20,463 nucleotides of DNA, from the NCBI GenBank assembly GCA_034660555.1, contig JAYEJL010000031.1:1-20463 (forward strand), given 5' to 3'. The position numbers were made by a program, and so were the translations under genes. The notes under the pieces are model-generated. The model had not been told where the DNA came from. It did no database searches and was given only the letters and a program-made list of their open reading frames with translations. This stretch comes from Thermotogota bacterium. Lineage in GTDB: Bacteria > Thermotogota > Thermotogae > Petrotogales > Kosmotogaceae. This document shows, one piece after another, positions 4,532-20,463 of this stretch; within the stretch, counting starts at the first letter, position 1, and each line of letters opens with the position of its first letter.

Positions 4532-4915
4532 ATGAAAGGTTTTACTCCTTTAAGGAAAAAAATCTATAAAATGATAAAAGATAATGATTCTCCTATAAAC
4601 GCTGATACAATCCACAAAAAATTGGACATCAAGCCTGATCTATCTTCAATCTACAGAGCTTTGAATTACCTTGAAAAAAAGGGTATGGTCAAATCTTTGA
4701 CATTCAATACAAAAATAAACTATTATTACACTCCAAAGAAGCATCCCCATCATTTTCTTTACTGCAAGAAGTGTGGAAAAACGGAAAGTTTTGACGTTTG
4801 TCTCGCAAATGAAATACAGAATAGGATTGAAGATACACACAACTTTAAAATAACTGGCCATGTATTTTACTTCATTGGTATTTGCAAAGAATGTATGAAA
4901 AGGGGTGGAAAATGA
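4532..4915 (+). CDS. zur: Fur-family transcriptional repressor, Zur by context
   Basis: TPLRKKI, LSSIYRALNYL HTH, HPHHFLYCKKCG and CKEC zinc motifs; first gene of a znuACB operon. Confidence 0.85.
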   Translation: MKGFTPLRKKIYKMIKDNDSPINADTIHKKLDIKPDLSSIYRALNYLEKKGMVKSLTFNTKINYYYTPKKHPHHFLYCKKCGKTESFDVCLANEIQNRIEDTHNFKITGHVFYFIGICKECMKRGGK

Positions 4916-5769
4916 TGCGAGCAAAAATCTTGTTAACAATATTCATTATGCTACTATATTCAGTCTTTTCAATAAACATCGCGACCACAATTAATCCATA
5001 CTATCTTATAGTTAAGGAGCTTGTTAATAATAGCGCAAACATCAGTGTGATTATAGAGCCTGGTGAAAACCCACATACGTATTCACCCACAATAAATGAT
5101 ATTAAAAAATTAAGATCTGCTGATCTAATATTGGCCAACGGTCTTTCGCTTGAACTCTATCTGGAAGATACATTGAAAGATATAAATAATCAAAATTCAA
5201 ATGTGCTCTATGTTTCTGACCTTATAGAAAATCTCGCTAATGACGTTCAAAAAGAAAATTCGTCTCATATAAACCCACATATATGGCTAAGTCTTGACTT
5301 TATGATTGAACAAATTATCCCCGGGTTAACAGATAAACTTATTGAAGTGGACTCCGCTAACAAGGCTTTTTATAGAACCAGTTCGGAGAAATTGATCGAG
5401 GACCTAAGTAAAATTAGAAATAGTGCTTCCACTCTTCTAAAGGATTATAAAGGTACAAACGTGTTACTTTCACATCCCAGTTTCAAATACTTTTTTACCG
5501 ATTTCGGGATAAAAGAATATGCAATATTTGAAGGTCACGGTGATGAACCAACCATAAAAGAATTGAGATCATTTATTGAAAAAGCCAATAATGGTGAATT
5601 CATAGCTATTTTTGGAGAAAAACAGCAAAATATTGAACCCGTACAGGTAATTGTAAAATCAACTAACCTAAACATGGGTATTCTAGATCCATTAGGTGTT
5701 GCCGCTCAAAACATTGTTGAACTTTTTATATACAACCTCAAGGAAATAGAGGAGGCATTGAATGAGTAA
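4912..5769 (+). CDS. znuA: Zn/Mn ABC transporter substrate-binding protein
   Basis: Signal peptide; PGENPHTYSP, NPHIWLS, SHPSFKYF and LDPLG metal-ligand motifs. Start placed at ATG 4912 (ATGA overlap with the zur stop). Confidence 0.88.
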   Translation: MMRAKILLTIFIMLLYSVFSINIATTINPYYLIVKELVNNSANISVIIEPGENPHTYSPTINDIKKLRSADLILANGLSLELYLEDTLKDINNQNSNVLYVSDLIENLANDVQKENSSHINPHIWLSLDFMIEQIIPGLTDKLIEVDSANKAFYRTSSEKLIEDLSKIRNSASTLLKDYKGTNVLLSHPSFKYFFTDFGIKEYAIFEGHGDEPTIKELRSFIEKANNGEFIAIFGEKQQNIEPVQVIVKSTNLNMGILDPLGVAAQNIVELFIYNLKEIEEALNE

Positions 5770-6505
5770 TGATAAATTGCTCGAAGTAAAGAATCTTTCC
5801 TACAGCATTGGTGAAAACATAATTTTAAAGAATGTTTCCTTTGACGTATATCGAGGAACCATGCTAGGAATAATCGGTCCAAACGGTGCTGGGAAAACAA
5901 CTTTGGTTAAAGCTATCGTAGGAGATCTTGAGGATTTTGAAGGAGCTATAAAAAGTAGCGGAAAAATAGGTTATCTTCCTCAAAGGACCGAGTTTGAACG
6001 ATCTTTTCCCATTAATGTAAAGGAAATTGTTGCCATGGGACTGTATGAAAAAAGAGGTACTTTACGTTATTTTAAAAAAGAGGACTGGAAAGAAATTGAA
6101 GCACTTCTTGGAAATGTTGGAATAAAAAAGCTTAAAAACAGGAGAATTGGCACACTCTCAGGTGGTGAATACCAGAGGGCAATGCTGGCAAGAGCACTTG
6201 CGAAACAACCTAATCTTTTGATACTCGATGAACCTGAAGCGGGGATAGATGAAATGGGAAAGGCTTCATTCTACAATCTCCTTGATAATCTGAAAAAATC
6301 AAAAAATATTTCTATACTTATGGTTAGTCATGATATAGGAATGGTTTTTGACGCCTGTGATAGTATTCTTTGTCTGAACAAAACTCTGCACTGTCATAAA
6401 GCCTCGGAAAATGTTTCTCCCGAGGATTTAACCAAAATATTCTCACCTGACTTTGACCTAATTCTCAGGGGTAAAGAACACGCAAAAAGGGAGCACAAAC
6501 TATGA
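5762..6505 (+). CDS. znuC: Zn ABC transporter ATP-binding protein
   Basis: GPNGAGKTT, GYLPQR, LSGGEYQR, LILDEP, VSHD and C-terminal CLNKTLHCH. Confidence 0.9.
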   Translation: MSNDKLLEVKNLSYSIGENIILKNVSFDVYRGTMLGIIGPNGAGKTTLVKAIVGDLEDFEGAIKSSGKIGYLPQRTEFERSFPINVKEIVAMGLYEKRGTLRYFKKEDWKEIEALLGNVGIKKLKNRRIGTLSGGEYQRAMLARALAKQPNLLILDEPEAGIDEMGKASFYNLLDNLKKSKNISILMVSHDIGMVFDACDSILCLNKTLHCHKASENVSPEDLTKIFSPDFDLILRGKEHAKREHKL

Positions 6506-7323
6506 ATTTTTTTTCAGATATATTCGCACTTGATTTTCTTTTTCTGGCATTTATTGCAGCATTGTTGGTCAGTTTTGTGACAGGTCTCTTTTCAACCGTA
6601 GTTGTACTAAGGAAAATCGAATTTATTGGTGATGGCGCTGCTCACGCAGCTTTTGGAGGTCTGGCTTTAGGATTTTTAATTGGCGTCAATACCAGATTGA
6701 TAGCCATATTAACAGCCATCATCTTTGCGGTTGTAATCAATCTGTTCAGCAAAAAAGGTTATTTGAGTGAAAATAGCATGATAGGAATCCTTTTGCCTTT
6801 ATCAATGGCATTGGGTATAATATTTCTATCATTCGTTGAAGGGTACACTCCTGATGTTATGAGTTATCTATTTGGAAATATTCTGCTAGTTTCAATGACA
6901 GACATCTGGATCCTTGCCATAATTGCAATAGTTTCAGGAATTTCCTTTTTGCTATTTCATAGAGAAATACTTTATTACTCTTTTGATGAAACACTTGCGA
7001 GACATTCCGGGATAAATGTTCCCCTTGTAAATTTTTTCGTTCTAATAGGTGTGTCAGTGAGTATAGTGGCTTCGGTAAAAATCGCTGGAATAATACTTGT
7101 AACAGCTTTTCTGGTAACACCTGCGGTAATAGCAAAAAGGCTTGCGAAAACCTTTAAAGGAATAGTATTCACTGCAATTACCTTCAGCCTTTTGTCATCA
7201 GTACTGGGATTATGGGGTGCATATGAATTTGAAATATCCCCCGGTCCATCAATAGTTGTGGTACTATTTATAGCATTTGTATCTGTTTATTTAATTACGT
7301 TGAAAAGAAAAGATATTCAGTGA
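6502..7323 (+). CDS. znuB: Zn ABC transporter permease
   Basis: GDGAAHAAFGG, SYLFGNIL, FDETLA..SG and PGPSIV ABC-3 permease motifs; multiple TM segments. Confidence 0.9.
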   Translation: MNFFSDIFALDFLFLAFIAALLVSFVTGLFSTVVVLRKIEFIGDGAAHAAFGGLALGFLIGVNTRLIAILTAIIFAVVINLFSKKGYLSENSMIGILLPLSMALGIIFLSFVEGYTPDVMSYLFGNILLVSMTDIWILAIIAIVSGISFLLFHREILYYSFDETLARHSGINVPLVNFFVLIGVSVSIVASVKIAGIILVTAFLVTPAVIAKRLAKTFKGIVFTAITFSLLSSVLGLWGAYEFEISPGPSIVVVLFIAFVSVYLITLKRKDIQ

Positions 7324-9316: not shown

Positions 9317-9694
9317 ATGTGGTTCAACATAAATATGCGTTCTCCGGTACCCATATACAAACAAATCAAAAGAAACATTTATAAATCGCTTTTAAGAGGA
9401 AAAATCAAGGATGGAGAAATGCTCCCCTCTATTAGGGACTTGGCTTCATCCATCAGGGTAAATCCAAATACTGTCGCTAGAGCATACCGGGAAATGGAAT
9501 CGGAAGACATTGTTGTGGCACGACAGGGTTTGGGGTACATAATTATTACAGATAGAAACCAGATTAGAAAAATAATTCTTGAAGAACTAAAGAAAGATCT
9601 GTTTGATCACTTAATTAAATACCAAAAGCTTGGACTTACTCTTGACGAAGTTCTGGAGGTGACAAAAACACTATGGAAAGAGAACAAAGTTTAA
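9317..9694 (+). CDS. GntR-family regulator, YtrA subfamily
   Basis: PIYKQI, LPSIRDLA..IRVNPNTVARAYREME wHTH with a short C-terminal domain; 125 aa; embedded in an ABC operon. Confidence 0.9.
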   Translation: MWFNINMRSPVPIYKQIKRNIYKSLLRGKIKDGEMLPSIRDLASSIRVNPNTVARAYREMESEDIVVARQGLGYIIITDRNQIRKIILEELKKDLFDHLIKYQKLGLTLDEVLEVTKTLWKENKV

Positions 9695-10572
9695 TACTTG
9701 AGGTTAATAATCTTAAGAAGACTTACAGAAACGGTGTAGAAGCAGTAAAAGGAATAGATATTCACCTGGATTCTCAGGAGGTGTGTGCACTTCTTGGTCC
9801 AAATGGTGCTGGAAAAACAACAACCTTGAAGTCTATTCTTGATTTGGTGAACTACGAAGGCGAAATAAAAGTGTTTGGTAAACCTGTACGTGAAGTAAAA
9901 GACAGGATTTCCTTTGTACCAGAAGAAAAGCTTTTTTATGAAAATATGGATGTAAATCAATCTTTGAAGGTTCTTAATAAAATACTGACAAATTTCGACA
10001 ATACAAAAGCTGAAGAACTGATTAAGTATTTTGATTTGCCAAGAAATAAGAAAATAGCAGGTTTCTCAAGTGGAATGAAAACCAGCGCATATTTAAGTTT
10101 TGCTTTTGCTCAGAACGTTGATCTATACATTTTGGATGAACCTACATGGGGACTGGATCCAATAAAACGTGATGATGTTCTCGAAATGATAAGACAGCTG
10201 GTCATTGAAGGGAAGAGTGTCCTCTATACATCACATATAATTCCGGAAGTTCAAAAAATAGCAGATAGAATGTATATAATGCACAAAGGAAAGATCCATT
10301 ATTCCGGTTCAATTGATGAATTAAAAGAGAAGTATAAAGTATTCTACATGACAGGAGACGTATATGATGAATTAGGAGATGAATCATTCTATACAGTTGT
10401 TAAAGAACAAAACAAAATTTCTGTTATCTCAAATGACCAGAATCAGTGGAACAGATTATCAAAAATAAATGAAATAGAAGTAGATAATTGCGATCTTGAA
10501 AAGTTCTTCCAGATAATCATACGCGGTGGATTGAACTCAGGTGTATTTTCAAATTCCATGAAGGAGAGATGA
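9673..10572 (+). CDS. ABC exporter ATP-binding protein
   Basis: GPNGAGKTT, FSSGMK, ILDEPTWGLDP, TSH; GGAGGTG RBS. Confidence 0.9.
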   Translation: MEREQSLILEVNNLKKTYRNGVEAVKGIDIHLDSQEVCALLGPNGAGKTTTLKSILDLVNYEGEIKVFGKPVREVKDRISFVPEEKLFYENMDVNQSLKVLNKILTNFDNTKAEELIKYFDLPRNKKIAGFSSGMKTSAYLSFAFAQNVDLYILDEPTWGLDPIKRDDVLEMIRQLVIEGKSVLYTSHIIPEVQKIADRMYIMHKGKIHYSGSIDELKEKYKVFYMTGDVYDELGDESFYTVVKEQNKISVISNDQNQWNRLSKINEIEVDNCDLEKFFQIIIRGGLNSGVFSNSMKER

Positions 10573-11876
10573 ATATGAAAAAGTCTTTAGTTATATTCCT
10601 AATTTTAATCGCTTTTTCATTTGCTTTTGCTTCAAGTGAAGATTTACAGATAGTCAGTCAGTACATCAACGCTTTTTTTGGAAAGGATTTTTCTACAGCT
10701 TATGAATTACAGAATGATATGGTAAAGGCTCAACTTGATGAAAAGGCTATGGAACAAACACACCAATATATCGTTAACAACTACGGAAATCCTGTCAGCA
10801 TTATTGAAATCAAACAGGATACACAGGATGTGTATAAAATTTTCGTGTTTTACATGCACTTTGATAATGCATATCTCAATGTAAATGTTGTTCTGGATCA
10901 GAACAAAAAGGTTGCTCAATTTCTAATTCAGCCAGCTCCGGCACCATCGAGCAAACCGAATTATGCAAATCCTGATAATTTTGTTGAAAGCGAAGTTTCA
11001 TTTGGTGAAGAGCCCTGGAAAATTCCCGGTACATTAACCATACCAAAAAACACCGAAAGCTTCCCAATGGTAATAATTATCGGAGGATCGGGACCAACCG
11101 ATAGAAATGGTACTGTAGGTCCAAATCAGCCCTATCGGGATATTGCCTGGGGTCTGTCTACCAATGGAATAGCAACATTAAGATACGATAAACGCACAAA
11201 GGTATATGGGGAAAAGATCATAGAAGAAGAGATAGAACCTACAATGCAATTTGAATACATCGAAGATATTTTTCAGGCTATAAATTTTGTTTCAAAAATG
11301 GAAACAGTTTCTGAAATTTATCTTGCAGGTCATAGTTTGGGAGGTATAGTGACACCTTACTCCGGAAAGAAGTCAGAAAGCGTTGATGGAATAATACTTT
11401 TGGCTGCGCCCGCCAGAAAACTGGCACAAATCAGTCTGGATCAGAACAAATATTTTGCCCCCATCTCCGGTATAACCGAGGAGCAATTAGGACAAATTGA
11501 AAAAATGTTCAAAGAATTGCTCGATCATAAATTGCCTCCTGAAACAATCATAGATCCCAATGCTAATCTAAAGGCTTCATATTACTATGATACAGATAAA
11601 TACCAGACACTCGTCTCACTTGAAGACTTTAAAAAACCTGTATTGGTACTTCAGGGAGAAGAAGATTTTCAAACCCTTATGGATAAGGATTTCAATGTTT
11701 TAAAAGAGAAGTTCTCTGATAAGAAAAACTTCACATTTAGATCCTTTGAAAGGCTCAATCATTTATTTATCGAAACTGAGACAGACATCTTCCATACGAC
11801 AGAAGAATACACAAAGCAGGGTTTTGTCAACAAAAGGGTAATAGAAACGATCATTAATTGGATAAAAAGCAATTAA
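10569..11876 (+). CDS. Secreted alpha/beta-fold serine hydrolase with N-terminal DUF3887-like domain
   Basis: Signal peptide ending AFA; N-terminal domain ending VVLDQNKKVAQFLIQP; PGTLTIP, GSGPTDRNG, LRYDKR, GHSLGG (Ser), QGEEDFQ (Asp) and LNHLF (His). Confidence 0.85.
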   Translation: MNMKKSLVIFLILIAFSFAFASSEDLQIVSQYINAFFGKDFSTAYELQNDMVKAQLDEKAMEQTHQYIVNNYGNPVSIIEIKQDTQDVYKIFVFYMHFDNAYLNVNVVLDQNKKVAQFLIQPAPAPSSKPNYANPDNFVESEVSFGEEPWKIPGTLTIPKNTESFPMVIIIGGSGPTDRNGTVGPNQPYRDIAWGLSTNGIATLRYDKRTKVYGEKIIEEEIEPTMQFEYIEDIFQAINFVSKMETVSEIYLAGHSLGGIVTPYSGKKSESVDGIILLAAPARKLAQISLDQNKYFAPISGITEEQLGQIEKMFKELLDHKLPPETIIDPNANLKASYYYDTDKYQTLVSLEDFKKPVLVLQGEEDFQTLMDKDFNVLKEKFSDKKNFTFRSFERLNHLFIETETDIFHTTEEYTKQGFVNKRVIETIINWIKSN

Positions 11877-11900
11877 ATTTGTATATATGAGGTGTTTGCG

Positions 11901-12659
11901 TTGATCAATTTGAAAAACATAACAAAGGTTTACAGTGGCGGAATAACAGCTGTGAAAAACGTGTCCTTGAATGTAAAAAAGGGTGAAATCTTTGGATTTC
12001 TTGGACCCAATGGTGCAGGGAAAACAACAACAATCAAGATGATTGTTGGCCTGTTGAGTCCCAGTGAAGGTGAAATATTCGTCGGGAACCACAATGTTTT
12101 AAGAGAACCTGAAAAAGCCAAATCAACAATGGGATACGTTGCTGATGAACCGCTTATAATGGAGAAGCTGAAGGGGATAGAATATCTTAAATTCATAGCT
12201 GATATGTTTGAAGTACCCGCAGAGAAAAGAACAGAACGAATTGAAAGGCTCCTAAAAGACTTCAAATTAATTGATGCTATAAATGATCCTGTTTCATCTT
12301 ATTCACACGGAATGCGACAGAAGCTTTCATTAATAGCTGCTCTGGTTCATAATCCTGATTTATGGATCCTCGATGAACCCATAGTAGGGCTTGATCCGGA
12401 ATCTGCATATATACTCAAGCTTATGATGCGCAGGCATGCAGATGCTGGGAATACTGTCTTCTTTTCAACCCATGTCATGGAAATCGCAGAAAAAGCATGC
12501 GACAGACTGGGAATAATAAGTAAAGGAAAACTTGAATTCGTAGGCACATTTGATGAACTAAAGGAATTGAGAGGTAAAGGTTCTCTTGAAAAATTATTCT
12601 TAGAGGTGACGGGCAGTGAAACTAAAGAAATGGATTTCTCTTACCTGGACGCTGATTAA
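11901..12659 (+). CDS. ABC exporter ATP-binding protein
   Basis: GFLGPNGAGKTT, YSHGMRQK, ILDEPIVGLDP, FSTH. TTG 11901 preferred over GTG 11892 because GAGGTG lies at 11889-11894. Confidence 0.9.
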   Translation: MINLKNITKVYSGGITAVKNVSLNVKKGEIFGFLGPNGAGKTTTIKMIVGLLSPSEGEIFVGNHNVLREPEKAKSTMGYVADEPLIMEKLKGIEYLKFIADMFEVPAEKRTERIERLLKDFKLIDAINDPVSSYSHGMRQKLSLIAALVHNPDLWILDEPIVGLDPESAYILKLMMRRHADAGNTVFFSTHVMEIAEKACDRLGIISKGKLEFVGTFDELKELRGKGSLEKLFLEVTGSETKEMDFSYLDAD

Positions 12660-14295
12660 TTCTCATTACGGGTTATCAAAAAAACACTATTACTACATTG
12701 AAAAGAAGGAACGAGTCTGGGAACCACTGATTATAATTTTCGCTTTTGGAATGAGTGCTATCGGGTTGATTCCTCTGTATGGAATGCTTATTACCCGTTC
12801 TTTTCAACAATATTCGCAGCTCGGTGCTCCTGAACTTTTTCTACTGCAGTTCATGGTTGTAACTGGACTTCTTGGTTTCTTTTTTGGAATCTTTTTAATG
12901 ATCGGAGCAATGCTTTTTTCAAGAGACATGAGGATTCTCATCCCTCTTCCCTTAAAACCTGAAGAAGTCATGGCAGCAAAATTTAGCACTGTTATCCTTG
13001 ATCAGATGATAATCTCTCTGGTCACACTTTTGCCACCTCTTATATATTTTGGGATTCAGACATCTGCAGGATTATCATTCTGGATCTACGGAATAATCAT
13101 TTTCCTGTTATCACAGATTCTACCTGTTACTATAACAGCGTTGGTGGTATTCCCACTGGCAAGGGTTTTCAGATTTAGCAAGCACCGTGACTTCCTTATA
13201 TATTTTATAAGCTCACTTTTACTTGTGGCAATAGTAATCTTTGTGGCATTAGTTAATTCCCAGGGAATGTCCGGTGATATGACGCCAGCTCGCATAATGG
13301 AAATGTTTTCCGACCCGGAAGGCTTACTAGTAAGAATTGGTAAAGTATATCCACCTGCAATACTGGCTTCAAAAGCGCTAATTAGTAACGGATTACCTGG
13401 ATTTCTTTGGCTTCTTTCATACATTTTGTTGCATGTTGTTTTATTTGGAGCGCTGCTATTGATAGGAAAAAAATTGTACTATAACATGTACAATCAGCTC
13501 CAGGAACATTTCGCTGGAAAAAAGGAATATAAAACAGAGGAACTGGCACTTTACCTGCAAAAACAAAAAACTAGATTCTCTGCGCTTTATTCCAGAGAGT
13601 GGAAGTACTTCCTTAGAGTACCATCGTTTACATTCAATGGTTTTGGTAATGTAATAGTGTTTCCTGTTATGATCATCATACTACTCAGTACCTATAAAAC
13701 AGGGCAACTGGCGCAGTTTGAAAGTTATTTACAGGCATTAAGATCATATTTCATTCCTATCGCTACACTCATGGGTGTTTTAAGTGGTGGAATAAATGGA
13801 CTTGCCTCATCAATTTTCAGTAGAGAGGGTGTGTACTTACCAGAATTAAAGATTGTTCCGGTAAATGCTGAAACCATTTTAACAATAAAGCTTTTGCATG
13901 TTAGTATCATTAGTTTTATTGGACCTCTTATAGGGACTATAGCCATAGGAGTAATTCTAAATGCAGGTCTTTTTGAAATTATTCTTGCCTTCATAATTTC
14001 AGCGTTAACTATAACTTTCCTTAATATCATACAGTTCATTATAGATGCGATTAGACCTATGCTGGAATGGGACAATCCTCAAAAAGCAATGAAGCAAAAT
14101 CTGAATGTTCTATTTTCGATACTGATAACTTTTGGTTATGTTGCAGGAATGGCTGCAATTGGATATTTTACAAGGGATTATATTCAGCCATGGTTAATGA
14201 GTCTTTTACTTTTTTTGGTCAGTTTAGCAGGATCATTTTTTATGTGGAAGATTGCTGTTTACAAAACCCGCAAGCTTCTCTCTGAAGATATGTAA
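12616..14295 (+). CDS. Large putative ABC exporter permease
   Basis: 559 aa with many TM segments in two halves; LFSRDMRILIPLPLKP, REWKYFLR.P, FSREG and RPMLEWDNPQKAMKQN motifs; overlaps the ATPase gene. Confidence 0.8.
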   Translation: MKLKKWISLTWTLINSHYGLSKKHYYYIEKKERVWEPLIIIFAFGMSAIGLIPLYGMLITRSFQQYSQLGAPELFLLQFMVVTGLLGFFFGIFLMIGAMLFSRDMRILIPLPLKPEEVMAAKFSTVILDQMIISLVTLLPPLIYFGIQTSAGLSFWIYGIIIFLLSQILPVTITALVVFPLARVFRFSKHRDFLIYFISSLLLVAIVIFVALVNSQGMSGDMTPARIMEMFSDPEGLLVRIGKVYPPAILASKALISNGLPGFLWLLSYILLHVVLFGALLLIGKKLYYNMYNQLQEHFAGKKEYKTEELALYLQKQKTRFSALYSREWKYFLRVPSFTFNGFGNVIVFPVMIIILLSTYKTGQLAQFESYLQALRSYFIPIATLMGVLSGGINGLASSIFSREGVYLPELKIVPVNAETILTIKLLHVSIISFIGPLIGTIAIGVILNAGLFEIILAFIISALTITFLNIIQFIIDAIRPMLEWDNPQKAMKQNLNVLFSILITFGYVAGMAAIGYFTRDYIQPWLMSLLLFLVSLAGSFFMWKIAVYKTRKLLSEDM

Positions 14296-14346: not shown

Positions 14347-14656
14347 CCCGACTTTGTCAGATGAAATTCTAAAAGGAGCCAATAGAGCAAAAAAAAGAAA
14401 AAGAAAATCAGAATATTGCCACTACCATTCTCTTAGAAGCTTAATTCATACGGTTTAGAGACGTTTTTTAGTGAAGCCATCTTCATTGCAGATAGTATTT
14501 TGTTGCTAAGTGGATCACCTGGTATCTTTAAGTAAAGTTGTTCACCTTTGTGATTGAGTTTTACAATCTTCATTGAGTTGAGTGAATCTTTTATCTTGTT
14601 TGGAGAAGCTTTTATTCCTTTGTTCTTCAATCTGAATTCCAATTCTCTCTAGAAGG
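14347..14656 (-). mobile_element. IS1634-like element 3' remnant (transposase C-terminus plus right IR), cut by an IS21 insertion
   Basis: Minus frame LLERELEFRLKNKGIKASPNKIKDSLNSM...ELSF* (stop at 14433) has no upstream part beyond 14656. Terminal CTGACAAAGTCGGG on the minus strand (14347-14360) resembles the IRs of the neighbouring IS1634. Confidence 0.7.
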
Positions 14657-14807
14657 TGTCGACCTCAATTGTAAAATGAGAAAAACATCAAAAAGAATTG
14701 TGAATAAACATCAGGGAAAATTGTGAGTTAATATTTGGATATCTTAGAAAAGAATGGAGGTATCCGGATGTTAACCAAAGAACAGGTTCTTGAAATAAGA
14801 ATATTAA
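14657..14807 (+). mobile_element. IS21-family left end with the first codons of istA, truncated
   Basis: Begins TGTCGACCTCAATTGTAAAATG; 23-nt periodic AAACATCA-N5-AATTGTGA repeats; GGAGG RBS; ATG 14768 gives MLTKEQVLEIRIL, an IstA-like N-terminus. Identical to 20337-20463 over 127 nt. Confidence 0.75.
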
Positions 14808-15904
14808 CTCAACTTTGACAGCAAAAGGTGGAAAAAAGGGAGAAAAAGCTCGGAAAGAGGCATAAATATGTGAGAAAAAAGAGAATTGTTTTCGAAATGT
14901 GGTAATCGGAGTACTAATGACAAAGGATGGTTTTCCTGTGGCCCACCAGGTATTTCCTGGAAACACAGCAGACATAGAAACCTTCAGGATAGCACTTGGG
15001 GATATAAAAAAGAGATTCAACATAGACAGGGTAATGGTAGTAGCCGATCGTGGAATGATAAGCAATAGACTAATAGAAGAAATAGACAAGGAAGGAATAT
15101 CGTACATATTCGGAATGAAGATGAGAAGGAATAAGAAAACGGAATATGTACTGAATCAGCCAGGTGAATACGAAAAAGTCCAAGAAAATCTGAAAGTGAA
15201 AGAAGTACAGTATGAAGGAGAAAGATATATAATCTGTTTCAATCCTCTCCAGAAAGAAAGAGACAGGATCAAAAGAGAAGAGATAGTAAAAAGCTTAAAA
15301 AAGAAACTCAAGCAGGGGCCAAAGAGTATAGTGAGTAACCGTGGATACAAAAGATATCTCAATATACAGAAAACAAATGTAACTATAGACGAGAAGAAAA
15401 TAGCTTCAGAAAGCAAGTACGATGGAAAATACGTACTCAGAACGAATACAAAACTTACGAACAGAGAGATAGCCCGATCATACAAGACACTCTGGAAAGT
15501 AGAGAGAGACTTCAGGGAACTGAAGAGTGGACTTGATCTACGTCCTATATACCATTACACAGATACGAGGGTAAAGGGGCACATAATGGTTTGTTTCCTG
15601 GCGCTTGTAATGGAAACAGCTTTGTATAGAAAGTTGAAAGAAATAGGGAGCGATTTCTCTTATGCAGACATCCTGGAAGACTTGACAGAGATAAGAGCTG
15701 TAGAGATAACCATAGAGGGCAAACGTTATCTTGCAAGGACTGAAATGATAGGTAATGCATATGACGCTTTCAAAGCACTTCGAATAAGACCGCCTGATTT
15801 AATTAAAGAGATCCCCCAATAGACAACTGCGGTGGTACGTCTGTTTTTCTTTTCGTTTTTTCCCTTATTTGGCTGTTTTCAGATTTCTTGTTGTCAAAGG
15901 TGAG
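14808..15904 (+). mobile_element. IS1634-family element with both IRs and an internal deletion
   Basis: Left end CTCAACTTTGACAGCAA versus reverse complement of right end CTCACCTTTGACAACAA (15/17 match). The transposase C-terminal half starts only about 90 nt inside the left end. Confidence 0.75.
14899..15822 (+). pseudogene. IS1634-family DDE transposase, N-terminally truncated
   Basis: VIGVLMTKDGFPVAHQVFPGNTAD, VVADRGM, YDGKYVLRTN, YKTLWKVERDFRELKS.LDLRPIYH and RVKGHIMVCFLAL. The N-terminal region with the first catalytic Asp is absent. Confidence 0.85.
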
Positions 15905-16058
15905 TCTGACGAAGTCGCAAATCCAAGCTCGCATATCCTGAGCTCTGCTCAGCATATCCGATTGCTTCCCAAATCGCACATCAATTGTTTTGCTTCTTAA
16001 CTTTCGAACAACTGACAAAGTTATTTTGTTTTCTTAAAAATAGTGTCTGTTTCTAATA

Positions 16059-16190
16059 ATGCATTTTGGCACAAAAGGGTTGACGCCGGAGGAGAAATTG
16101 GACAAATTTAGATTAACGGAACATAAACCTCATATCCAGAAAGATGAGGTTAAAAGTGAGAAACCGTTACTTATGTGTTAACAACTTACA
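16059..16190 (+). mobile_element. IS481-family 3' tail remnant
   Basis: Encodes HFGTKGLTPEEK...PHIQKDEVK, which aligns with QFSIDGLTPREK...PHIQKYEVK of the element at 19672-20336. Both end ...ACTTACA. Confidence 0.7.
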
Positions 16191-16212
16191 CCTAATATTT
16201 TATCCTTTGGTT

Positions 16213-17103
16213 TCAAATCCTAACAACTTCGTATTTCTCAAGATATCTTTTAAGTTTATTATAACCTATTAGCTGAATATCGGAATACTTATAAATTGAT
16301 ACTTTATCGTGTTTAAATTCTTTCTTAATCTCTCTGGCATAGTCCTGTTTCTTCACTTTGTTTATTATTATTCTGTTTAATTTTAGATCTACAGAATTTA
16401 ACTTTTTTTCCATACGCTTTGATTCTCTAAGTGAGAGCATATCACAATTTAAAATCATATTTATATTTGTATTTTCATTCTTGAAATTTTTGTTTATTTT
16501 TTTATATCTTTCAAGTAGAATATTTAATTTATTTTTGATTTTATCCCTTTCAATTTCTTTTTTTCCAAATTTTACTTTTGAAATTATCTCCTTTTTTTCG
16601 AGAATTTTATTTCTTAGATTTAATAACTCCTCGAGCCATAACATAGATACAGAAGGGAGCAAAAAAAATTTTATTGTTAAAGCCGTTGGGGGCATATCAA
16701 AAATATAGTAATCATAACCTTTATGATTATTTAAAACATCCACATAGCCCAGAATAAGAGCATGCTCCTCTATTCCCGGAGAATACCGAAGTACATTGAA
16801 ATATTTGCTTAAATTAAACGCGCTTTCGTAACTATAATTACTTTTAATATCTTCCTCTGTTTCATTTAAATATTTTTCTTTCCAGTACTTTTCATCAACT
16901 TCAATAACATCCAAGCAATCATCAATTTCAGTAACTTTTTGACTGAATTTTCTTTTAAAAATATCACTTTGATTATGTGCCGGATCCATGGAAACAAGAA
17001 GAGTTTTTTTACCTTTTAAAGCTTTTTCTGTACTAAACAGCGATGAAACAGTAGATTTTCCTACACCGCCTTTACCTATAAAGAAATGACGCTGTTTTTG
17101 CAT
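16213..17103 (-). CDS. Single-domain ArsA/GET3-family ATPase
   Basis: FIGKGGVGKST deviant Walker A, VSMDPAHNQSD switch I, SPGIEE, IFDMPPT switch II, IIINK; AGGAG RBS. Confidence 0.9.
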   Translation of the reverse strand: MQKQRHFFIGKGGVGKSTVSSLFSTEKALKGKKTLLVSMDPAHNQSDIFKRKFSQKVTEIDDCLDVIEVDEKYWKEKYLNETEEDIKSNYSYESAFNLSKYFNVLRYSPGIEEHALILGYVDVLNNHKGYDYYIFDMPPTALTIKFFLLPSVSMLWLEELLNLRNKILEKKEIISKVKFGKKEIERDKIKNKLNILLERYKKINKNFKNENTNINMILNCDMLSLRESKRMEKKLNSVDLKLNRIIINKVKKQDYAREIKKEFKHDKVSIYKYSDIQLIGYNKLKRYLEKYEVVRI

Positions 17104-17110
17104 ATTGCTC

Positions 17111-17386
17111 CTAATCTATATCCAGAATGGAAAACAATTCACCTAAAGGATCGTGTGCAATGGAAACTTTATCAAGCATTAAATTCAACTCATCTTCCAT
17201 AAGCGGAAGCATATCCAGGGTAATTTGAATCGGAGGAGAAGGGTACCCAATAAACATACCAAAAATAATAACTGCAAATATATTTTCCAACTCTTCTTCT
17301 TCCTTCTCGACCATTTCCAGGACATTTTCTCTTTCAATTTTATCAATATCTTTAAAAAACTTTTTTATTCTTTCAAACATATTCAT
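17111..17386 (-). CDS. Small acidic conserved hypothetical protein of cstA-arsA operons (cory-CC-star-like, without terminal Cys-Cys)
   Basis: EKEEEELENIFAVIIFGMFIGYPSPP..ITLDMLP pattern; overlaps the upstream gene by 4 nt and ends 7 nt before the ATPase start. Confidence 0.75.
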   Translation of the reverse strand: MNMFERIKKFFKDIDKIERENVLEMVEKEEEELENIFAVIIFGMFIGYPSPPIQITLDMLPLMEDELNLMLDKVSIAHDPLGELFSILDID

Positions 17387-17817
17387 TCTACTTTAAAAAT
17401 CCTTTTTTCCAGGTTAATCCTTCTGACAGAAGGATAATAATAATAAACAGAATAAAGTGATAACAATATTATTATAATCATTGGAATCCTATCCACACCA
17501 ACAATAAAACTAAGAATCATTATATATGGTGTCAATAAAGGCATTATTAAAAAATTTTTTTCAAATAAAAAGGCCTTTTCTTCGTACTTTTTGTCTTCTA
17601 CAAGTTTTTTCCATTTATTTATAAATGTTAATCTGTACCAGAAGGGAATAACAAATGCGAAAAGCAATGCAACAAACATCAAAATAAAAGAAAATATTCT
17701 GCTGCAGTTAAATAAACGAATACTTGCTACTATTTTATCAATACCAAACAAAATAGCTATTATCAAAAAAGCAGGTATTGTAAGCTTAAAATATAGATTT
17801 AAAAGCTTTTTCCTCAT
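17383..17817 (-). CDS. Hypothetical membrane protein with about 4 TM segments
   Basis: 144 aa with four hydrophobic stretches and a C-terminal YYYYPS.RRI..EKRIF; co-oriented in the operon; AAGGA RBS. Confidence 0.75.
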   Translation of the reverse strand: MRKKLLNLYFKLTIPAFLIIAILFGIDKIVASIRLFNCSRIFSFILMFVALLFAFVIPFWYRLTFINKWKKLVEDKKYEEKAFLFEKNFLIMPLLTPYIMILSFIVGVDRIPMIIIILLSLYSVYYYYPSVRRINLEKRIFKVE

Positions 17818-17842
17818 ATACTAATCCTTTTTTAAAAAATTA

Positions 17843-17873
17843 GGAGAAACACACCACCACAGGTGGTTTCTCC
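17843..17873 (-). terminator. Bulged hairpin after cstA (partial terminator or mRNA stabiliser)
   Basis: GGAGAAA/TTTCTCC and CCACC/GGTGG stems with a 4-nt bulge, followed by TAATTTTTT on the minus strand. Confidence 0.55.
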
Positions 17874-17890
17874 AGGTAGTAATTAAAACT

Positions 17891-19639
17891 CTACTTTTCT
17901 AAATCTTCGGTAAGCTTCCCTGGTTCATCTCCAGGTTTAATCTTAAAGAATTTTCTTACTCCTTCAAATACTATTCCTACCACCAAAAGAATAACAATAG
18001 TATTAATTGTTATTAGAAGCAGGTTCATAGCATTTATAAAGTTCTGCTCGTTCAACAGTGTTGCCCAGAATGTCATAACTACCATAAAAAGAGCAGGAAT
18101 TCCGGAAACAAGCCATTTCAATCCACCCTTGTATTTTAGATAGATCGTAATCACTATTAATGTAAGCCCTGCAAGAGTCTGATTTACAGCCCCAAATAAA
18201 GGCCAAAGCGTAAGAGCACCTTTTCCCCCTGCACCTGTTGCAAATGCAAGAATTGCAGCTGTTAAAACAACAAAGAGTGTTGAGATGTATCTATTCTGGA
18301 ATATTTTTACTTTGATATCTGTGAATAATTCCGTAACAACATATCTTTGTATTCTTGTAGCAGTATCAAGGGTTGTACCCGCAAAAGACGCCACAAACAC
18401 TCCCATAATAGCAATTGCAAACTGTCTCGGGATTCCAAGTTTTGCTATAATGTTAGCCGAACCAACCACGAATGCACTAATTTTGGATCCCAGTCCGGCT
18501 GCAACTGCCCATGATGAATAGTGGGCTGTCCATGCAGCGGTGCCTGTTATCATTTCTCCTCCGGATTTATAACCTAATCCTATACCTGCCGCAACAGCAA
18601 TTACAGCAATAGTAGCAAGGGCACCTTCCATTAACATGGAACCGGCACCTACAAATAAAGAATCCTCTTCATTTGCCACCTGTTTAGCAGATGTTCCCGA
18701 GGATACAAGTGAGTGAAACCCGGATATCGCCCCACAAGCTATGGTAATAAATAAGAACGGCCACATTGGTGGTGCCTCCGCCGGAGTTAACTGTACTGCA
18801 GGAGCAACAATTTCAAGCCCTCCACTAGAAAATGATGCAGCAAATACTCCCAGTGTCAACAATCCCATAGCTACCAACAACTGGTGGGAATTTATAAAGT
18901 CTCTTGGCTGTAAGAGAGTTGTTACCGGTAAGATTGAAGCAATGAAAGCATAGATCAAAAGGATAATAACCCATACTCCTGTTGCCGGAATACCAAATAA
19001 TGCCAGCATATTAATGGGAATAAATACCCCAATAAAAACTGTTACATACATTACAATTAAAGCAAAAATAGACCAGGTAGTAGCATTTTTACCCTTTTTA
19101 TAAATCAAATACCCAAGAAATATCGCAATCGGAATTTCCATCCATACCGGAAAAACTGACTGCGGAAACATATCAAAAACAATTGCAATTACAAGTCCAA
19201 ATATCGCAACTACAATCCACAGTTCCAAAAATACTAAAATAAAAAAGAAAAACCTGGTTCTTGAATTAATATATCTTGAGGTGTATTCAGAAACTGATTT
19301 TCCTTTATTCCTCATGGATATAATCAATGAACCAAAGTCATGGGTAGCTCCCATAACTACTGAACCTACGAAGATCCAGATTAGAGCAGGAACCCATCCC
19401 CATATAATAGCTATTGCAGGTCCAACTATAGGGCCTGTACCAGCTATAGAGGTAAAATGGTGTCCAAAAATGATCTCTTTCCTGGTAGGTACATAATCAA
19501 TACCATCTTCATATTTTTTCGATGGAACTTCGCTGATTTTTGAAAGCTTAAATATCTTACTCCCGAGGAACTTATCGTAAAGTTTGTACATGACAATAAA
19601 GCCTACAAACACAGCAATCATGATAATTAATGCTTCCAT
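17891..19639 (-). CDS. cstA: Carbon starvation protein A family transporter
   Basis: DGIDYVPT, FGHHFTSIAGTGPIVGP, HDF, LLQPRDFIN, FITIACGAISGFHSLVSSGT, TTLDTATR and LWPLFGAVNQ; many TM segments; GAGGGG RBS. Confidence 0.95.
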   Translation of the reverse strand: MEALIIMIAVFVGFIVMYKLYDKFLGSKIFKLSKISEVPSKKYEDGIDYVPTRKEIIFGHHFTSIAGTGPIVGPAIAIIWGWVPALIWIFVGSVVMGATHDFGSLIISMRNKGKSVSEYTSRYINSRTRFFFFILVFLELWIVVAIFGLVIAIVFDMFPQSVFPVWMEIPIAIFLGYLIYKKGKNATTWSIFALIVMYVTVFIGVFIPINMLALFGIPATGVWVIILLIYAFIASILPVTTLLQPRDFINSHQLLVAMGLLTLGVFAASFSSGGLEIVAPAVQLTPAEAPPMWPFLFITIACGAISGFHSLVSSGTSAKQVANEEDSLFVGAGSMLMEGALATIAVIAVAAGIGLGYKSGGEMITGTAAWTAHYSSWAVAAGLGSKISAFVVGSANIIAKLGIPRQFAIAIMGVFVASFAGTTLDTATRIQRYVVTELFTDIKVKIFQNRYISTLFVVLTAAILAFATGAGGKGALTLWPLFGAVNQTLAGLTLIVITIYLKYKGGLKWLVSGIPALFMVVMTFWATLLNEQNFINAMNLLLITINTIVILLVVGIVFEGVRKFFKIKPGDEPGKLTEDLEK

Positions 19640-19671
19640 ATAACCCCCCTCCCCTCATTTATTGTTTTATT

Positions 19672-20336
19672 TGTAAGTCATTAACCTATGGGTAACGATT
19701 CTCACTTTAACCTCATATTTCTGTATATGAGGTTCAACATTTATTGGCGCAATGTTAACACATTTCTCTCTCGGTGTCAACCCGTCAATACTAAATTGCA
19801 TCCTGTACTTTCTAAACATGCGTAGATAATCCTTTAGGACCATCTCTCCATTCTTGTGGCAATCAAAGTGATACCTGTCGTGTAATTCATCATCTATGGT
19901 CCGAAAAAACTGTTCTACCTTGCCGTTAGTCTTCGGCCTGGCCACCTGGGTTCGTCTGTGTTTGATATCCAGTTTCTTGCAGCGCCTCTCGAAAGTATGT
20001 TTCTTTCTTTCACTTTCTGTATGATAGGTGTATTCTTTTCTGTTGTCGGAAAGGAGGTCTTCAAACTAGATATCATAATTGCGGTCAAACCACTTGGTTC
20101 CTCTTTAAAAGAAGTCTGCTGACGTCTTTGCCTTCTTGTTCGGTATTACTTCCACGTTTGGCAATTTCCTGATGTCGATAAGAGCTAACTCTCCCGTTTT
20201 TTCCTTCTCGTAGTGTACGGGCCCTTCTTTATCTTCTTTTTCGTACTTTGCCCCGCGTCTGTACCTTCCCCAGATGCAGCGTATACAGTATTGGGATTAA
20301 CTACACTTGCGCTTCAGGTAGACGCTAATGTGAAGC
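19672..20336 (-). mobile_element. IS481-family transposase pseudogene with right end, interrupted by IS21
   Basis: Minus frame HYEKEKTGELALIDIRKLPNVEVIPNKK...FF*...DI*FEDLLSDNRKEY...LDIKHRRTQVARPKTNGKVEQFFRTI...GLTP has two internal stops and an apparent deletion. It terminates ...ACTTACA at 19672. Confidence 0.8.
19752..19780 (-). promoter_or_regulatory. Candidate outward-facing promoter inside IS481, pointing at cstA
   Basis: Minus strand TTGACA (19780-19775), 17-nt spacer ending TGT, TAACAT (19757-19752). Confidence 0.5.
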
Positions 20337-20463
20337 TGTCGACCTCAATTGTAAAATGAGAAAAACATCAAAAAGAATTGTGAATAAACATCAGGGAAAA
20401 TTGTGAGTTAATATTTGGATATCTTAGAAAAGAATGGAGGTATCCGGATGTTAACCAAAGAAC
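20337..20463 (+). mobile_element. IS21-family left end and istA start, running off the window
   Basis: 127/127 nt identical to 14657-14783; TG terminus, subterminal repeats, RBS and ATG at 20448 (MLTKE). Confidence 0.75.

Follow-up and report, generated by a model that had tools for sequence, protein, structure and literature searches.

The question raised by this locus is what an ATPase of the Get3/ArsA fold does in an operon with a CstA carrier, as members of the CstA family are ion-driven importers of small carboxylates or peptides that are able to work alone. The window, the whole 20,463-nt stretch of Thermotogota DNA that was analyzed, carries four ORFs of 582, 144, 91, and 296 aa on its minus strand, as first described, and the features discussed below are laid out as follows:

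16059..16190, plus strand: second, inverted IS481-like right-end remnant, recognized by similarity to 19734-19672
16213..17103, minus strand: Get3/ArsA-fold ATPase gene, 296 aa; matches PF02374, and TIGR00345 above its cut-off
17111..17386, minus strand: cstX, 91 aa; weak NF041419 match
17383..17817, minus strand: gene for a protein with four predicted transmembrane segments (4-TM), 144 aa; no family match, four hydrophobic segments
17843..17873, minus strand: strong RNA hairpin with a U-rich stretch after it, in the spacer that separates cstA from the accessory genes
17891..19639, minus strand: cstA, 582 aa; PF02554, 436 bits
19672..19945, minus strand: IS481-family 3' remnant with its right end; NF033577, E 1.7e-8, and alignment with the other flank

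The earlier note described four co-oriented genes with the last three tightly coupled, and this arrangement was confirmed: the 144-aa and 91-aa genes overlap by 4 nt, the 91-aa and ATPase genes are 7 nt apart, and 73 nt separate cstA from the 144-aa gene. A purine-rich stretch precedes the ATG of each gene. Positions 15954-20366 are covered by a single contig of a public run that is possibly the source of the window itself, and this coverage argues against a chimeric join only. The identical gene order was found again in other genomes and in metagenome contigs, indicating that the clustering is not due to chance and that the genes form a conserved unit, as had been proposed.

Part of this operon has a history. 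Castillo and Saier (2010; PMC2963123) described a cstA-cstX-arsA-homolog operon from genome sequences and proposed that the ATPase energizes CstA through CstX; as far as their text was available, they report that the three proteins co-evolve and that CstX was "never present without CstA" in their survey, and the only accessories named in the main text are CstX and CstY. The description of this locus as uncharacterized thus stands experimentally, as no experimental test of the core was found in the literature searched, which consisted largely of openly accessible papers, but the core itself has been known from comparative genomics since 2010. To judge from these same sources, in which no account of the 4-TM gene was found, what is new is the 144-aa membrane gene. 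We favor, at a probability of roughly 40%, a reading in which the ATPase would act on CstA as an ATP-driven switch, with CstX and the 4-TM protein docking it there.

The ATPase is a single domain of about 300 aa with one P-loop, as initially noted (TIGR00345, 161.9 bits against a cut-off of 135), and is the only ArsA/Get3-family match over cut-off in the genome. A role in arsenic or antimony resistance, suggested by the PF02374 match and the ArsA name, is very improbable: the protein lacks the second domain of ArsA, it scores 72 bits against the ArsA model TIGR04291 (cut-off 650), it has no Cys at the positions aligned to residues 113 and 172 of plasmid ArsA and so does not reproduce the metalloid ligand set Cys113/Cys172/Cys422, and it is placed apart from four ArsA domains in a quick tree. 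The window was also correctly said to be free of other ars genes, with no match to these families among the 20 main ORFs scanned. The best fold matches are instead Get3/TRC40 proteins (TM 0.76 to archaeal TRC40, 3zq6), in agreement with the original assignment as Get3-like. Helices 7 and 9 are extended as in Get3, the Walker A lysines, switch I Asp40, and switch II Asp136 are invariant, and the catalytic residues are intact in 47 of 47 sequences. Switch II reads D-x-x-P-T-A-L rather than DTAPTGH, a fixed change in the one ATPase clade that the 4-TM gene marks.

This resemblance brings in a second, less probable explanation, in which the genes would serve dedicated biogenesis or quality control: the ATPase would shield hydrophobic helices of CstX or CstA and pass them to a membrane receptor, making the system a small bacterial counterpart of GET and PAT in which the receptor is the 4-TM protein here and a CCDC47-like CstY elsewhere. 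In addition to the fold itself, an insert of about 20 residues behind helix 7, missing from arsenic ArsA, speaks for such a role. However, the insert is modeled as a beta-hairpin (176-185; pLDDT about 82, monomer) rather than a helical lid, and helices 4-9 hold a median of 2 Met; Met is not required for the Get3/TRC40 lid (PMC6593721). The CxxC zinc hook, typical of Get3/TRC40 from fungi, animals, and many archaea, is found in 0 of 52 clade ATPases, the region being deleted relative to 3ug6 and 3zq6. Yeast Get3 residues F246/Y250/E253/Q257, which we take to be those that bind Get1, Get2, and Get4, align to M222/R226/K229/K233 of the window protein, positions that vary within the clade.

The 91-aa CstX is acidic (pI 4.2), has no Cys, and contains a central hydrophobic stretch, G-x-F-x-G-x-P-x-P-P. 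It matches NF041419 (cory-CC-star) at E 8.5e-5 and 22.5 bits against a cut-off of 80, identifying it as homologous only, and all 47 members of the CstX alignment show the same weak match. The Atlas assigns it to PF25952 (DUF7990; score 0.95); no match was found in the Pfam library scanned, and hence none to a YbdD family. A homologous CstX is present in Thermococcus cstA-cstX-ATPase-cstY loci. The charges of CstX and the 4-TM protein are opposite, with median pI values of 4.6 and 9.9, which we count in favor of the switch reading. The proposal that CstX is an adaptor or client is likely to be right.

The 144-aa 4-TM protein is basic (pI 9.9) and has no match to a Pfam family. Its homologs fall into 184 clusters at 50% identity (E <= 1e-10), with at least two of the listed matches being long repeat proteins, and P58, Y122, Y125, and P129 are invariant. 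The structure model is confident (pLDDT 93), and a fold search with it gave no match at E <= 0.001; the best Z was 7.5, to generic helical bundles, and no higher than 6.1 in a second search, and Get1, TMCO1, EMC3, and YidC chains, representing a superfamily (Get1/Oxa1) characterized by three core TM helices, a coiled coil in the cytosol, and a hydrophilic groove, were absent from the best 50 fold matches listed. Structure matches in the Atlas were all below TM 0.5, and feature matches were to unnamed clusters. The suggestion that this protein is a Get1/2-type receptor so far lacks support, as no fold match is significant and the yeast Get3 helix residues are not retained in the ATPase, and the biogenesis explanation is weakened with it. 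By analogy, the protein may still be a membrane anchor. It does not appear to be a detached part of a once longer CstA, given that it has no CstA Pfam match; a longer, fused form was also absent from 7999 candidates, which is weak evidence on the same point. One candidate (P0157), in which the N-terminus of an ATPase is joined to the C-terminus of a 4-TM protein, lies on a single 954-nt contig in an order reversed from that of the operon and was rejected as a chimera. Three genomes (G039, G025, and G317) gave weak 4-TM matches, at E 6e-5 to 4e-4, with no other genes of the module nearby.

Neighborhoods establish the 4-TM gene as a true and conserved member of the operon, as the earlier note held. 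Among loci fetched by the 4-TM protein alone, the gene is upstream of cstX in all 66 loci with room, the ATPase gene comes next after cstX in 55 of 56, and cstA precedes the 4-TM gene in 57 of 60. CstY occurs in none of the 80 4-TM loci (36 of which have room after the ATPase gene). Of 41 CstX loci, 4 contain the 4-TM gene, 36 contain CstY, and none contains both. In a set of 401 genomes from a single phylum, strong 4-TM matches are confined to four genomes, and it is these four that supply the best four CstA matches. The 4-TM protein is therefore best described as an accessory subunit of an unnamed family standing in place of the usual CstY. The 80 loci all belong to one clade and reduce to 28 at 80% identity and 10 at 60%, so that one past event could account for the absence of CstY from all of them. 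A weak match to PF07946, CCDC47, is seen in four of seven CstY proteins (best E 2.9e-5), and this resemblance to a chaperone subunit favors a biogenesis role.

The tight coupling is confined to the last three genes, which could mean that their products work as an independent unit on other clients and share no more than a transcript with cstA. Three loci (L097, L103, and L104) have the 4-TM gene without cstA or the ATPase gene in the available sequence; L103, with room on both sides, pairs the 4-TM gene with cstX, but its 2.9 kb of upstream sequence contains no cstA, and in L085 the upstream position is taken by a gene other than cstA. Loci without cstA are Bacteroidota-like. These four loci, and the fact that all 80 form a single clade, also count against the switch reading. 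We consider this improbable in view of the 57 of 60 loci with cstA upstream and the reported absence of CstX wherever CstA was missing in the 2010 survey. Also against it are 32 CstA positions specific to the 4-TM clade in comparison with 18 solo relatives, a pattern that shared ancestry may explain.

The carrier bears most directly on whether the ATPase energizes, gates, or assembles CstA, as originally suggested. Trees nest the window CstA clade among CstA proteins without adjacent accessory genes. Its nearest relatives, at 48-59% identity, are the next 21 CstA matches; none of them has an accessory gene within 1.5 kb, and two queries found no CstX match in any of the 21 genomes, for which there are no completeness figures. 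Within the host phylum, CstA was found in 46 of 150 other genomes and CstX in 0 of 150. The three accessory genes thus look like an add-on to a self-sufficient carrier, and obligate energizing or assembling is weakened; the biogenesis explanation suffers from the same carriers. Against our preferred switch, we count that 11 of the 21 solo genomes carry other, distant ATPases of the superfamily, in one case (G434) about 2 kb upstream of cstA. A sequence search found no solved CstA structure.

The proposal of Castillo and Saier, with the ATPase as a stoichiometric subunit hydrolyzing ATP in each cycle, coupled through CstX and joined by the 4-TM protein in a structural role, would make CstA a primary pump. 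It draws on the reported co-evolution, the intact catalytic residues, and the four genes traveling as one cassette here, yet it seems unlikely, as close solo CstA relatives share the core motifs of the clade, the CstA and ATPase trees conflict, and a strong hairpin parts cstA from the other genes in most loci. The CstA tree rejects grouping the 4-TM clade with bacterial CstY-type systems (p-AU 3e-8), whereas the ATPase tree favors it, marginally (p-AU 0.045, with one long-branched CC-star row); this conflict fits a module that moved onto another CstA. In the window, the 81-nt spacer folds at -23.1 kcal/mol (z -3.6), and a spacer hairpin with z <= -2, from 12 crude shuffles each, is present in 50 of 52 spacers of the 4-TM clade and 29 of 33 of CstY type. 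It is probably a partial terminator or an mRNA-stabilizing stem and, on the biogenesis explanation, could hold the helpers below CstA in amount.

The four genes are flanked by two IS481-type ends facing inward. The remnant at 19672..19945 stops 32 nt before the cstA start and the other stops 22 nt past the ATPase stop; the two share 83% identity over 65 nt (E 3.9e-10) and both terminate in ACTTACA, and no further copies of the end were found in the genome. We infer that 16059..16190 is an IS481 terminus because both remnants carry the transposase-tail reading frame and in view of the ends typical of IS481 elements. A promoter-like site (10 of 12) lies at 19780-19752 inside the remnant; with 21 such sites against 17 expected, it is within chance and was not retained as a promoter.

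Under the reading of an ATP-driven switch docked on CstA, the carrier would remain an ion-driven importer and the three downstream genes would supply an add-on module. The ATPase, judging from its fold and catalytic residues, would dimerize like Get3 and cycle between open and closed forms, and a hydrophobic or amphipathic CstX helix would probably be held in its helical groove. The basic 4-TM protein may keep acidic CstX at the membrane and dock it on CstA, filling the place of CstY in other lineages, and the ATP cycle would switch or boost CstA much as ArsA optionally boosts ArsB. More speculatively, and with rather doubtful odds, CstX and the Get3-like ATPase could be a portable, ATP-driven module that grips membrane helices and is used on different CstA proteins through interchangeable membrane adaptors (CCDC47-like CstY in one lineage, the 4-TM protein in this one). 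If so, bacteria would have a GET/PAT-like machine reserved for a single transporter, and the fold of its receptor would match none known. Hardly any function has been assigned to those Get3-like ATPases of bacteria that have a hydrophobic groove, and the variant brings a fourth subunit family to the 2010 core. Very similar carriers, some having the three accessory genes and some lacking them, provide a natural control, and the four-gene form in cultured Desulfosarcina widdelii (complete genome; locus L003) makes the effect of an ATPase on a secondary carrier directly testable.

A comparison with known systems places the window at varying distances from each. E. coli CstA requires the small protein YbdD (PMC5847655), which we regard, together with ArsA-ArsB, as a precedent for the switch reading, and is likewise a CstA-family carrier with a small neighboring protein, but the system as described in the available text includes no ATPase, and the window carrier is shorter and distant from this type (NF011590, pyruvate/proton symporter; 219 bits, cut-off 1188). 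The ArsA-ArsB arsenite pump has the ATPase superfamily in common and a carrier that can also use an ion gradient, as ArsB can be driven by the proton gradient and also operates together with ArsA (PMC2963123); unlike ArsA, the window ATPase lacks tandem domains and metalloid cysteines, and the carrier and partners differ. Archaeal (3zq6, 3ug6) and yeast Get3/TRC40 share its fold, extended helices, and catalytic motifs, whereas the window protein has neither CxxC nor CxC, few Met, a beta-hairpin modeled at the position of the helix-8 lid, and no conserved receptor helix. The cstA/cory-CC-star/ArsA-family operons (NF041419) have the same three-gene core and a homologous small protein, the window CstX lacking their terminal Cys-Cys; the example on a Paracoccus aestuarii plasmid has no 4-TM gene, and its ATPase is about 25% identical to that of the window and has DTAPTGH. 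Closest are the operons of Castillo and Saier, which, in the text available, have the same short CstA, CstX of about 90 aa, and single-domain ATPase of about 300 aa, and are defined by having neither ars determinants nor ArsA cysteines, as is the case here. Relative to these operons, the window lacks CstY (optional there, about 210 aa with one TM), carries an ATPase with the switch II sequence DxxPTAL, and adds a 144-aa four-helix gene between cstA and cstX.

The four minus-strand ORFs claimed in the earlier note were recovered in the window, as listed here with the insertion-sequence features that lie around them:

19639-17891, minus strand, CstA ORF, PF02554 match
17817-17383, minus strand, 144-aa 4-TM (four-helix membrane) protein, no family matched in profile scans
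17386-17111, minus strand, 91-aa protein (CstX), weak match to cory-CC-star NF041419
17103-16213, minus strand, ATPase, TIGR00345 at 161.9 bits against a cut-off of 135
14652-15822, IS1634-family element, NF033559 at 274.6 bits
20332-20463 (contig end), first 132 nt of a second IS1634 copy, direct orientation, 99% identical

The reported coupling of the last three genes also stands, with a 4-nt overlap between the 144-aa and 91-aa genes and a 7-nt gap before the ATPase gene; the gap from cstA to the 4-TM gene is 73 nt, and each of the four genes is present once in the host genome. The 91-aa protein is CstX, which Atlas places in DUF7990. The portion of Castillo and Saier 2010 (PMC2963123) consulted describes 26 operons pairing CstA with a single-domain ArsA homologue; 24 of these also encode a 90-aa CstX, and five archaeal operons a 210-aa CstY. 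It proposes that ATP hydrolysis is coupled to CstA via CstX; no experiments following up this proposal were found in the literature searched. The 41 CstX loci that we fetched all contain the ATPase, with the 4-TM gene in 4, CstY in 36, both in none and neither in one, at a contig end; the Thermococcus loci among them show the order cstA-cstX-cstX-ATPase-cstY. While the same portion of PMC2963123 reports CstY in archaea only, the fetched loci include bacterial CstY, which is common in Desulfobacterales and Syntrophales (L005-L041), often in two copies.

The 4-TM protein has no Pfam match. A search profile built from nine relatives retrieved 85 clusters at 90% identity, mostly named "hypothetical" in their sources, and 184 clusters at 50% identity (E <= 1e-10), mostly 140-160 aa long. 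Linkage was assessed in loci fetched by the 4-TM protein alone, avoiding bias: of 148 confirmed metagenome matches, the best 80 were taken. These loci are related rather than independent, collapsing to 64 at 95% identity, 28 at 80% and 10 at 60%. In loci with enough flanking DNA, cstX follows the 4-TM gene in 66/66, the ATPase is then present in 55/56 and cstA lies upstream in 57/60, confirming that the four genes recur together; CstY occurs in 0/80, of which 36 have room past the ATPase. That the 4-TM protein, CstX and the ATPase instead form an independent unit is quite improbable. The linkage exceptions are L085, L103 and L104, with L097 similar to the latter two. L097, L103 and L104 carry divergent 4-TM genes, and their available DNA contains neither cstA nor the ATPase; a DUF4907 protein and cstX follow the 4-TM gene in L097 and L103, and haem-binding-domain genes precede it in L103 and L104. 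The taxa named among the carriers are Desulfobacterales, Desulfosarcina widdelii and one spirochaete. In the phylum of D. widdelii (401 genomes) the 4-TM protein matched strongly in four genomes and weakly in one, and those four hold the top four CstA scores among the 176 with CstA. The spirochaete's phylum (301 genomes) gave two matches, both in the four-gene order.

The ATPase is Get3-like, as the earlier note held: its best model match is an archaeal TRC40/Get3 (TM 0.76), and in the family-model scan it scored far below the arsenic ArsA models. Compared with arsenic ArsA, it lacks the ArsA cysteines and has an added insert of about 20 residues, modelled as a beta-hairpin. A quick tree (57 rows, redundancy cut 85%) unites the 4-TM-type ATPases in a single clade (SH-aLRT 99) whose sister group is the bacterial CstY-type ATPases; ArsA falls elsewhere, and a role in arsenic resistance is extremely improbable. 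Unlike Get3, the window ATPase lacks a CxxC, and the yeast Get3 helix F246/Y250/E253/Q257, presumably the Get1/2-binding positions, is not conserved in the clade. The suggestion that the 4-TM protein could be a Get1/2-type receptor has gained no support so far, as this helix is not kept and the confident 4-TM model (pLDDT 93) has no significant fold match in structure searches. Under the classification of Farkas et al. 2019 (PMC6593721), as far as consulted, the ATPase fits among prokaryotic homologues that have a single domain and a groove but no Get1/2/4 residues. It is likely active, judging from sequence, because the two Walker A lysines, Asp40 and Asp136 are unchanged in 47/47 sequences, and the part of PMC12415280 consulted describes these as catalytic positions of ArsA and Get3. 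Switch II reads Ala-Leu in 47/47 4-TM-clade ATPases, at the Gly-His position of Get3 and ArsA, and Gly-Leu in all 37 CstY-type ATPases. Small CC-ending proteins repeatedly adjoin ATPases of this family; in a haloarchaeal arsenic operon (L138:4788-5335), two other small Cys-Cys-terminated proteins (halo-CC-star) directly follow arsA.

The 4-TM-clade CstA proteins share 76% identity with each other, 56% with 18 solo CstA (those without adjacent accessory genes) and 35% with CstY-type CstA, and are nested among solo CstA in the tree. The 21 genomes with the next-best CstA have no accessory genes within 1.5 kb of cstA, and neither the clade profile nor NF041419 found CstX in them (positive control: G300). 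Eleven of these genomes encode distant ATPases (<= 129 bits vs 465), in one case near cstA: at L185 (G434:C1:1311300-1316000), the gene for a 393-aa Get3-family ATPase, whose switch reads DCAPTAES, is two ORFs upstream of the solo-type cstA. In the host phylum, CstA occurs in 46/150 other genomes, several closed with scores near 730 bits, and CstX in 0/150. The CstA data reject a group made up of the 4-TM clade and the bacterial CstY-type systems (p-AU 3e-8). For the ATPase data, rejection of CstY-type monophyly is only marginal (p-AU 0.045; 19 rows, among them one long CC-star branch). These tests conflict, suggesting that the CstX-ATPase module was grafted onto a solo-type carrier; repeated loss of the module in solo lineages is the alternative. 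By either route, close relatives of the window CstA live without CstX.

CstA was matched in 0/4 same-genus and 1/24 same-family genomes. Two inverted IS481-like right ends (83% identity over 65 nt) flank the 3.5-kb operon, one 32 nt ahead of the first start and the other 22 nt past the last stop, and thus the four genes seem to have travelled together as a single cassette. Outside these remnants, two IS1634 ends in direct orientation bracket the operon, and a contig of another run extends from 20336 into IS1634 sequence. An element of about 90 nt at 15908-16018 resembles 18 stretches in other parts of the genome (72-100% identity). Two other regions look ordinary: 9317-14295 encodes a GntR regulator together with ABC ATPases, a permease and an EstD-like esterase, and 4532-7323 a Zn/Mn ABC importer and a regulator of the Fur family.

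Our most likely reading, at a probability of roughly 0.4, is an ATP-driven switch or booster on an ion-driven CstA, with putative docking through CstX and the 4-TM protein. CstA would be the ion-driven importer and the ATPase dimer would grip CstX; the basic 4-TM protein would anchor acidic CstX and dock it on CstA, taking the place of CstY, and the ATP cycle would switch or boost transport. A dedicated biogenesis role for the accessory genes is possible, if doubtful, and is favoured by a weak match of CstY to CCDC47 of the PAT complex (4/7 proteins, best E 2.9e-5). The part of PMC5847655 consulted reports that E. coli CstA requires the small protein YbdD, which sets a precedent, within the CstA family, for dependence on an accessory protein. 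The 81-nt spacer past cstA has a predicted folding energy of -23.1 kcal/mol (z -3.6), with comparable hairpins in 50/52 4-TM-clade and 29/33 CstY-type spacers (12 crude shuffles each, one duplicate dropped); a T-rich tail follows in only 15 and 3, respectively. This predicted hairpin may keep the accessory proteins scarcer than CstA, and a stoichiometric primary pump is an unlikely arrangement.

In conclusion, the papers searched yielded no mention of the 4-TM family or of its exclusion of CstY, nor of the fixed change in switch II or the control that solo carriers provide. The core trio and the energising idea are shared with the operons in the consulted portion of PMC2963123 and are 15 years old, and the four-gene operon is a variant, with a 4-TM gene, of a system that comparative genomics had already described.
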